Below are positions 103-3,295 of a stretch of DNA of 37,733 bases, piece after piece. Position 1 is the stretch's first letter. Every line of letters starts with the position of its first letter. The notes beneath the pieces were generated by a model, which did not search any database, was not told the origin of the DNA, and saw nothing but the letters and a program-made list of their open reading frames with translations. Source of the DNA: Escherichia coli (lineage in GTDB: Bacteria; Pseudomonadota; Gammaproteobacteria; Enterobacterales; Enterobacteriaceae); NCBI RefSeq assembly GCF_003334355.1, contig NZ_QOWP01000034.1; one strand, 5' to 3'. The position numbers and the translations under genes are program-made.

Positions 103-122
103 TAACGTTTAACGGTAACGGT

Positions 123-148
123 GTCCCGAAACGAACCCGTTTCGGGAC
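123..148 (+). other. Perfect 10-bp stem / 6-nt loop hairpin between gadB and gadC (GTCCCGAAAC-GAACCC-GTTTCGGGAC)
   Basis: Inverted repeat read directly from the sequence. No T-tract follows, so it is more likely an intercistronic mRNA structure than a full terminator. Confidence 0.5.
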
Positions 149-257
149 AATTTCCAAAGTCTGTTCACTGGCATTAGCAACGGAAAATATTGTTCTGAAT
201 ACGCTTCAGAACAAAACAGGTGCGGTTCCGACAGGAATACCGTTTTAGGGGGATAAT

Positions 258-1793
258 ATGGCTACATCAGTACAGACAGGTAAAGCTAAGCAGCTCACAT
301 TACTTGGATTCTTTGCCATAACGGCATCGATGGTAATGGCTGTTTATGAATACCCTACCTTCGCAACATCGGGCTTTTCATTAGTCTTCTTCCTGCTATT
401 AGGCGGGATTTTATGGTTTATTCCCGTGGGACTTTGTGCTGCGGAAATGGCCACCGTCGACGGCTGGGAAGAAGGTGGTGTCTTCGCCTGGGTATCAAAT
501 ACTCTGGGGCCGAGATGGGGATTTGCAGCGATCTCATTTGGCTATCTGCAAATCGCCATTGGTTTTATTCCGATGCTCTATTTCGTGTTAGGGGCACTCT
601 CCTACATTCTGAAATGGCCAGCGCTGAATGAAGACCCCATTACCAAAACTATTGCAGCACTCATCATTCTTTGGGCGCTGGCATTAACGCAGTTTGGTGG
701 CACGAAATACACGGCGCGAATTGCTAAAGTTGGCTTCTTCGCCGGTATCCTGTTACCTGCATTTATTTTGATCGCATTAGCGGCTATTTATCTGCACTCC
801 GGTGCCCCCGTTGCTATCGAAATGGATTCGAAGACCTTCTTCCCTGACTTCTCTAAAGTGGGCACCCTGGTAGTATTTGTTGCCTTCATTTTGAGTTATA
901 TGGGCGTAGAAGCATCCGCAACCCACGTCAATGAAATGAGCAACCCAGGGCGCGACTATCCGTTGGCTATGTTACTGCTGATGGTGGCGGCAATCTGCTT
1001 AAGCTCTGTTGGTGGTTTGTCTATTGCGATGGTCATTCCGGGTAATGAAATCAACCTCTCCGCAGGGGTAATGCAAACCTTTACCGTTCTGATGTCCCAT
1101 GTGGCACCAGAAATTGAGTGGACGGTTCGCGTGATCTCCGCACTGCTGTTGCTGGGTGTTCTGGCGGAAATCGCCTCCTGGATTGTTGGTCCTTCTCGCG
1201 GGATGTATGTCACAGCGCAGAAAAACCTGCTGCCAGCGGCATTCGCTAAAATGAACAAAAATGGCGTACCGGTAACGCTGGTCATTTCGCAGCTGGTGAT
1301 TACGTCTATCGCGTTGATCATCCTCACCAATACCGGTGGCGGTAACAACATGTCCTTCCTGATCGCACTGGCGCTGACGGTGGTGATTTATCTGTGTGCT
1401 TATTTCATGCTGTTTATTGGCTACATTGTGTTGGTTCTTAAACATCCTGACTTAAAACGCACATTTAATATCCCTGGTGGTAAAGGGGTGAAACTGGTCG
1501 TGGCAATTGTCGGTCTGCTGACTTCAATTATGGCGTTTATTGTTTCCTTCCTGCCGCCGGATAACATCCAGGGTGATTCTACCGATATGTATGTTGAATT
1601 ACTGGTTGTTAGTTTCCTGGTGGTACTTGCCCTGCCCTTTATTCTCTATGCTGTTCATGATCGTAAAGGCAAAGCAAATACCGGCGTCACTCTGGAGCCA
1701 ATCAACAGTCAGAACGCACCAAAAGGTCACTTCTTCCTGCACCCGCGTGCACGTTCACCACACTATATTGTGATGAATGACAAGAAACACTAA
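258..1793 (+). CDS. gadC: Glutamate:GABA antiporter (APC family)
   Basis: 511-aa ORF, highly hydrophobic with multiple transmembrane segments. N-terminus [22 protein letters not shown] recognised as GadC. RBS GGGGGA upstream of the ATG. Lies immediately downstream of gadB. Confidence 0.95.
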
Positions 1794-1818
1794 CCATGTC
1801 TGAATGGTTATAAGACAA

Positions 1819-1846
1819 GGGAGCGATAATTCATCGCTCCCTTTTT
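1819..1846 (+). terminator. Rho-independent terminator after gadC
   Basis: GGGAGCGAT-AATTC-ATCGCTCCC stem-loop followed by TTTTT, 25 nt after the gadC stop. Confidence 0.8.
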
Positions 1847-1923
1847 CGTGCTTGCTGTCGTATTGACTTAACGGGGATAAGTACGAGAATGAGCGCACAT
1901 CTGTTTACCGGAAACCAGCACAT

Positions 1924-3260: not shown

Positions 3261-3295
3261 GTAACAAGCCGGTGCTTTACCCACCGGCTTGTTAC
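3261..3295 (+). terminator. 14-bp perfect hairpin downstream of yddW (GTAACAAGCCGGTG / CACCGGCTTGTTAC), terminator-like
   Basis: Perfect inverted repeat 17 nt after the yddW stop. No strong T-tract, so intrinsic-terminator function is uncertain. Confidence 0.5.

Follow-up and report, generated by a model that had tools for sequence, protein, structure and literature searches.

A conserved stem-loop in the gadB-gadC spacer of Escherichia coli lies at a mapped mRNA 3′ end

The spacer between gadB and gadC of Escherichia coli carries a 12-bp stem-loop, here called hairpin 1, which on balance appears to define and protect the 3′ end of a gadB-only mRNA, with some transcription continuing into gadC. 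Hairpin 1 is real, functional-looking and conserved, yet of a well-known kind. Among the acid-resistance systems of E. coli, the most effective one has the gadBC genes at its core. To our knowledge, work on their regulation has been confined almost wholly to the promoter. If the conserved stem-loop makes a gadB-only message, it would represent a post-transcriptional layer setting the enzyme-to-antiporter ratio. Stabilising or attenuating hairpins within operons are a textbook concept; the gain is therefore incremental. In the literature accessible to full-text search, no discussion of hairpin 1 was found.

Locus and structure of hairpin 1

The window, i.e. the whole stretch of 37,733 nucleotides that was analyzed, carries the 3′ end of gadB, gadC and digH in this order, as identified by its match to E. 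coli and by identical records annotated in RefSeq. Positions 1–400 are identical to strain MG1655, in which the minus-strand coordinate equals 1,570,747 minus the window position. The last 102 nt of the gadB coding sequence occupy positions 1–102 of the plus strand, ending with the stop codon TGA (100–102) and followed by a second in-frame stop, TAA (103–105) (open reading frame list and RefSeq annotation of identical E. coli records). The gadC coding sequence (258–1793, plus strand) begins with the ATG at 258 and is reached via read-through of hairpin 1, according to the open reading frame list, the annotation and SMRT-Cappable-seq data. The MG1655 RefSeq record holds no annotated feature at the site of hairpin 1.

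A perfect 10-bp hairpin at positions 123–148 with GAACCC between its arms had been reported in a preliminary description of the sequence. The letters read GTCCCGAAAC-GAACCC-GTTTCGGGAC, as stated there, and the perfect stem extends to 12 bp: TGTCCCGAAACG (122–133) pairs with CGTTTCGGGACA (138–149) around the 4-nt loop AACC. The 5′ arm (UGUCCCGAAACG, 122–133, plus strand) was delimited by sequence, predicted fold and perfect-stem scan, and the 3′ arm (CGUUUCGGGACA, 138–149, plus strand) additionally by pair counts. The loop (134–137, plus strand) was placed by the predicted fold and by variant comparison, with CACC and AAGC as polymorphisms in sampled E. coli. The stem starts 19 nt past the gadB TGA; its 10-bp version begins at the 21st nucleotide, which agrees with the distance of 21 nt given earlier. 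Compared with the generally known size of the footprint of a terminating ribosome, this start would be just out of reach of a ribosome that terminates on gadB.

The fold of positions 118–158 has a predicted energy of −21.1 kcal/mol (z = −4.85), a stability not reached by any of 200 dinucleotide shuffles. In the window (37.7 kb), a scan for perfect stems of 10 bp or more with loops of 3–10 nt gave 13 nested hits in six places, compared with a mean of 0.31 nested hits from the same scan on 100 dinucleotide-preserving shuffles. Hairpin 1 is more than a product of chance. Mapped RNA 3′ ends coincide with three of the six places.

The stem is followed by AAUUUCC and not by a U-tract (tail AATTTCCAAAGT / AAUUUCCAAAGU). 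Three of the eight nucleotides after the hairpin are U (tail AAUUUCCA), and the two stem-proximal positions are A. A consensus terminator scan did not include the site in its output. The absence of a T-tract, pointed out beforehand, is thus borne out by the letters and by the terminator scan.

Mapped RNA 3′ end and read-through into gadC

In Term-seq data for MG1655 grown in M63 glucose medium, one 3′ end maps to 1570594(-), with an average of 33,817 reads (Supplementary file 1, sheet M63 0.4; Adams et al., 2021, PMC7815308). The coordinate corresponds to window position 153, the last U of GGGACAAUUU, 4 nt past the stem of hairpin 1. Coordinate mapping of the Term-seq end places U153 at the close of the tail AUUU (150–153, plus strand); the flanking sequence given in the published file stops at ...GTTTCGGGACAATTT (PMC7815308). 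A 3′ end at about position 150 had been named as the feature to look for, and the published end at 153 with its 33,817 reads provides it. The end is labelled 'orphan' in the atlas because it is located 51 nt from the gadB stop, the limit for 'primary' ends being 50 nt (PMC7815308). Hairpin 1 would account for this orphan end.

The same M63 sheet lists the end of the gadC terminator at 1568900(-), window position 1847, with 70,553 reads (PMC7815308). This intrinsic terminator at the end of the operon (1817–1847, plus strand; stem scan and Term-seq) consists of an 11-bp stem followed by UUUUUC, with the 3′ end at 1847. Each of the two ends, 1570594 and 1568900, is listed once, in the M63 sheet only, and neither occurs in the two LB sheets (PMC7815308). 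The missing LB entries most likely reflect expression and not a regulation of the hairpin.

Full-length transcripts across the hairpin are contained in SMRT-Cappable-seq data. The accessible part of Supplementary Data 2 lists the operon b1493|b1492, full-length gadB|gadC, from the transcription start site 1572073 (PMC6131387), in line with the earlier statement that gadB and gadC are co-transcribed across the hairpin. As far as these entries go, read-through is therefore real and hairpin 1 is at most a partial stop. Among the operon variants listed in that part around the start site 1572073, none comprises gadB only, and none of the entries listed there for this locus is a gadC-only start site (PMC6131387). 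A search for an internal gadC promoter returned one weak consensus match only (228–257), which ends at the gadC start codon. An internal promoter for gadC was rejected on the basis of this weak match and of the lack of a gadC-only start site among the SMRT-Cappable-seq entries in the accessible part of the table.

Conservation within Escherichia

The 85 nt around hairpin 1 were found in 5,406 of 5,426 complete E. coli genomes, at a median of one place per genome. The changes in five sampled E. coli variants are confined to the loop, which reads CACC or AAGC instead of AACC, or to the loop-closing pair. One E. coli genome, the beluga whale isolate KC-Dl-1 (locus L088), has lost hairpin 1 through a deletion whose junction links the 3′ portion of gadB with mid-spacer sequence; its gadB is annotated as frameshifted and as a pseudogene.

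Across the Escherichia species, the gadB-gadC spacer is 93% identical, and the substitutions cluster in the hairpin. The stem of E. albertii is kept by three double changes, one U-A to C-G and two A-U to G-C. At a locus labelled E. coli strain E69, an A-U pair has become G-U, which is compatible with a sense-strand RNA only. Pairs of hairpin 1 have thus been kept by compensatory substitutions, as in conserved structured RNA elements. The numbers of U's after the stem among Escherichia are 3, 3, 3, 2, 2 and 1, while the stem is kept. Since the three compensatory pairs all derive from one lineage, E. albertii, the Escherichia changes alone give a modest indication of selection on the pairing and not on the U's. 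The earlier description had left two roles side by side, a partial terminator or a 3′ stabiliser of gadB mRNA; this either/or is upheld by the mapped 3′ end, the compensatory changes and, as far as the listed transcripts go, the read-through.

The sequence just 3′ of hairpin 1 (window 154–189, AAGTCTGTTCACTGGCATTAGCAA) is mostly invariant in the Escherichia alignment including E. albertii, whereas the hairpin sequence varies. It might contain a cleavage or binding site.

Stem-loops in the spacers of other Proteobacteria

A scan of one genome per species yielded 80 gadC loci, about 65 of which have gadB directly upstream. The best perfect-stem hairpin was stronger than those of all 200 dinucleotide shuffles in 40 of 61 spacers (at least 40 nt in length), a count which misses the imperfect stems present in several more spacers. 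Matched controls exceeded all shuffles in 1 of 54 segments of the same length upstream of gadB and in 0 of 54 segments inside gadB. The spacer hairpins usually start 10–35 nt past the stop, and their sequences are unrelated between genera. They occur, among others, in Providencia, Proteus, Yersinia, Tatumella, Acinetobacter, Brucella/Ochrobactrum, Halomonas and several Rhizobiales.

A family of eight loci belongs mostly to Providencia and Proteus and includes a Klebsiella sp. and an unclassified Enterobacteriaceae bin. RNAalifold analysis of this family gave a 13-bp consensus stem with compensatory changes in 9 of 13 pairs and with G-U pairs on the sense strand. Taken together, the Escherichia alignment and this independent, Morganellaceae-centred hairpin family show that the RNA structure of the sense strand is under selection, both purifying and compensatory.

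True U-runs follow the spacer hairpin in Yersinia rohdei, a Serratia sp., a Comamonas locus, a related metagenome bin and a Citrobacter sp. Most other taxa have a spacer hairpin without a real U-run. The U-richness after gadB-side and gadC-side hairpins at 48 loci did not differ significantly (p = 0.26), in a metric which is noisy because A/U pairs are absorbed into stems.

RT-PCR has shown co-transcription of gadB and gadC in Brucella microti (PMC5695133). Related Brucella and Ochrobactrum loci, distinct from B. microti itself, carry a 13-bp hairpin in the spacer, and the co-transcription may proceed across such a hairpin. The occurrence of strong hairpins of unrelated sequence in 40 of 61 spacers suggests that the arrangement is generally selected in decarboxylase-antiporter operons. 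It is conceivable, though improbable, that the stem-loop after the decarboxylase gene is an ancient and independently re-invented feature of gadBC in Alpha-, Beta- and Gammaproteobacteria and acts as a regulated rather than a fixed valve. Equally speculative examples of such a valve are a ProQ-like hairpin binder or an acid-dependent RNase activity which would shift the ratio of the GadB and GadC messages.

Proposed protection of the gadB message and alternative explanations

The favoured explanation is a barrier to exonucleases. RNA polymerase from the gadB promoter would transcribe the hairpin, which lies just past the footprint of a ribosome ending at the gadB stop, and many transcripts would be extended into gadC. 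Transcripts broken or ended downstream, whether cut by an endonuclease (within the AU-rich spacer or within gadC) or stopped by premature termination, would be trimmed in 3′-to-5′ direction by PNPase and RNase II. At hairpin 1, we infer, the 12-bp stem would stall these exonucleases and leave a stable end at ...GGGACAAUUU. Weak intrinsic termination at the UUU there may contribute a minor share of the ends. As a net result, the gadB message would be more abundant and longer-lived than the gadC message. Through hairpin 1, cells can thus probably keep a larger pool of gadB than of gadC message, with a presumed effect on the GadB:GadC ratio. Such an imbalance would suit an enzyme that is abundant in the cytosol and works with an antiporter in the membrane.

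One documented class of stable stem-loops lacks U-rich tails; these stem-loops set the steady-state 3′ ends of mRNAs and block PNPase and RNase II, and they can drift to and from intrinsic terminators by a change of U content alone (Dar and Sorek, 2018, PMC6061677). Hairpin 1 resembles these protective stem-loops in its steady-state 3′ end directly downstream of a stable and U-poor stem, and in the transcription continuing beyond it, seen as full-length gadB|gadC transcripts in the accessible SMRT-Cappable-seq entries. It differs from the elements at the ends of transcription units, as it is located inside an operon between co-transcribed genes and is not followed by a C-rich tract. The 108 nt of the region 3′ of hairpin 1 contain 20 C and 25 G and are not C-rich; a loading of Rho there is therefore unsupported. 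No Rho region is present near hairpin 1 in data from an LB experiment, a condition in which the gad genes are poorly expressed (PMC7815308).

Protection by the stem is also favoured by the lack of a U-tract, by the silent terminator scan and by a stem which is kept while the U's decay in Escherichia. Against it stand the position of the end on the last U of UUU, the spacing of +4, which equals that of the bona fide gadC terminator, the detection of the 3′ end in only one of three Term-seq conditions, the lack of a gadB-only variant among the accessible SMRT-Cappable-seq entries, and the U-runs after the hairpin in some other genera. The spacing and the terminal U do not separate trimming from termination because the gadC terminator has the same spacing.

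A leaky intrinsic, Rho-independent terminator is the main alternative, held as a tentative possibility. The hairpin and the AAUUU would release some polymerases at U151–153 and so reduce the transcription of gadC, with RNA protection as a secondary effect. As in intrinsic terminators, a stable GC-containing stem-loop is present (12 bp, −21.1 kcal/mol), and its stem is predicted to be more stable than that of the gadC operon terminator (−18.1 kcal/mol). The 3′ end lies exactly on the last U of a short U run, 4 nt past the stem and spaced as at the gadC terminator, and read-through occurs downstream, as at leaky terminators inside operons. The true U-runs in Yersinia rohdei, the Serratia sp., the Comamonas locus with the related bin and the Citrobacter sp., and the U-richness across taxa, which shows no significant difference between the gadB and gadC sides (p = 0.26), point in the same direction. 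However, the U-rich tract of about 7–8 nt directly after the stem is lacking: hairpin 1 has just three U's, two stem-proximal A's and no call in the consensus scan. These few U's are not conserved in the close relatives within Escherichia despite the compensated stem, and a gadB-only primary transcript is absent from the SMRT-Cappable-seq variants in the accessible list. The exonuclease barrier is considered more likely than the leaky terminator, and both can coexist.

A role as a translational or structural regulator of gadC is very unlikely. The 5′ arm would pair alternatively with the gadC Shine-Dalgarno region, and translation would be tuned by hairpin formation or processing. A duplex of the 5′ arm (window 119–135) with positions 236–260 has a predicted energy of −13.5 kcal/mol, and 12 of 500 shuffles were as good. 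However, the local hairpin forms earlier and, at −21 kcal/mol, far exceeds this duplex in stability, the Shine-Dalgarno region is about 100 nt away, and the changes in the E. albertii arm are, judged by eye, unmatched in that region. Least probable of all, with hardly any weight, is a palindrome acting as DNA (a site for protein binding or recombination) or a functionless neutral leftover: any perfect palindrome is a possible site for a dimeric DNA-binding protein, but it is the hairpin potential and not a motif which unrelated sequences keep in many genera, G-U pairs occur on the sense strand only, compensatory changes are observed, an RNA end maps to the hairpin base, and the single copy per genome makes it neither a REP nor a mobile repeat.

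Known element classes were compared as well. A REP element or mobile repeat was rejected, the 85-nt query having a median of one place per genome in 5,406 genomes. A scan of positions 1–2000 with the Rfam 15 covariance models gave no match overlapping 103–257, even at E-values up to 10. Hairpin 1 does not qualify as an Hfq-type small RNA derived from a 3′UTR, given its short UUU tail and a read number below that of the operon terminator. An RNase III site was rejected, a stem of only 12 bp being too short for it. The malE-malF REP element of the malEFG operon is reportedly an intercistronic hairpin which stabilises mRNA, as described by Newbury et al. in 1987. By analogy with this element, hairpin 1 would follow a highly needed upstream gene and shield the upstream segment from 3′ exonucleases, resulting in unequal expression within the operon. 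Unlike the malE-malF element, it is single-copy per genome, not a REP and without a match in Rfam.

Other hairpins and sequence features

A second, AU-rich hairpin with a perfect 10-bp stem (TTGTTCTGAA-TACGC-TTCAGAACAA) is located at 190–214 on the plus strand (stem scan and fold, −10.9 kcal/mol). On the minus strand, TATTTTCC comes directly after the hairpin, and the scan flagged it as terminator-like. No Term-seq end is listed for it, 1570594 being the only coordinate that begins with 15705 (PMC7815308); the second hairpin therefore gives no stable end. Its stem is less well kept and is broken in E. whittamii, in the locus labelled E. coli E69 and in E. albertii. Possibly, it is part of the same intercistronic architecture. 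The related spacers of Providencia and Proteus also have a second, weaker hairpin (ATCAG...CTGAT) and then a T-rich run.

The sequence which the paralogue gadA has in common with gadB ends about 4 nt after the stop. Nevertheless, a 15-bp perfect hairpin (−28 kcal/mol) unrelated to hairpin 1 starts about 17 nt past the gadA stop, ahead of gadX (positions 408–470 of locus L090, about 3666107–3666169 on the minus strand of MG1655; stem scan and fold). Like hairpin 1, it comes soon after the stop, with the downstream gene in a listed transcription unit, gadAX. It differs from hairpin 1 in its sequence, its larger loop and a tail richer in U (GCUUAUUAAU), and the Term-seq file contains no end at the gadA hairpin (PMC7815308). 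An 11-bp perfect hairpin after digH (window 3264–3292) likewise lacks a U-tract (tail TACCCTC). The accessible part of the SMRT-Cappable-seq table contains a read-through variant past it, b1491|b1490, listed as novel (PMC6131387).

Five of the matches to the gadB-gadC junction are carried by plasmid records and not by chromosomes. At the non-Escherichia loci (L009–L074), GadC is 69–81% identical to the E. coli protein, and the adjacent GadB only 51–64%. From these identities, gadB and gadC of Escherichia appear to have different evolutionary histories, with a junction somewhere in the spacer. The 3′ arm of hairpin 1 resembles the ribosome-binding region of gadC (CCGTTTCGGGA versus CCGTTTTAGGGGGA). 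Directly 5′ of hairpin 1, a tandem direct repeat AACGGT-AACGGT covers window positions 112–123. In one isolate from urine (368_BP0078, locus L087), the AACGGT unit occurs three times, a pattern resembling replication slippage.
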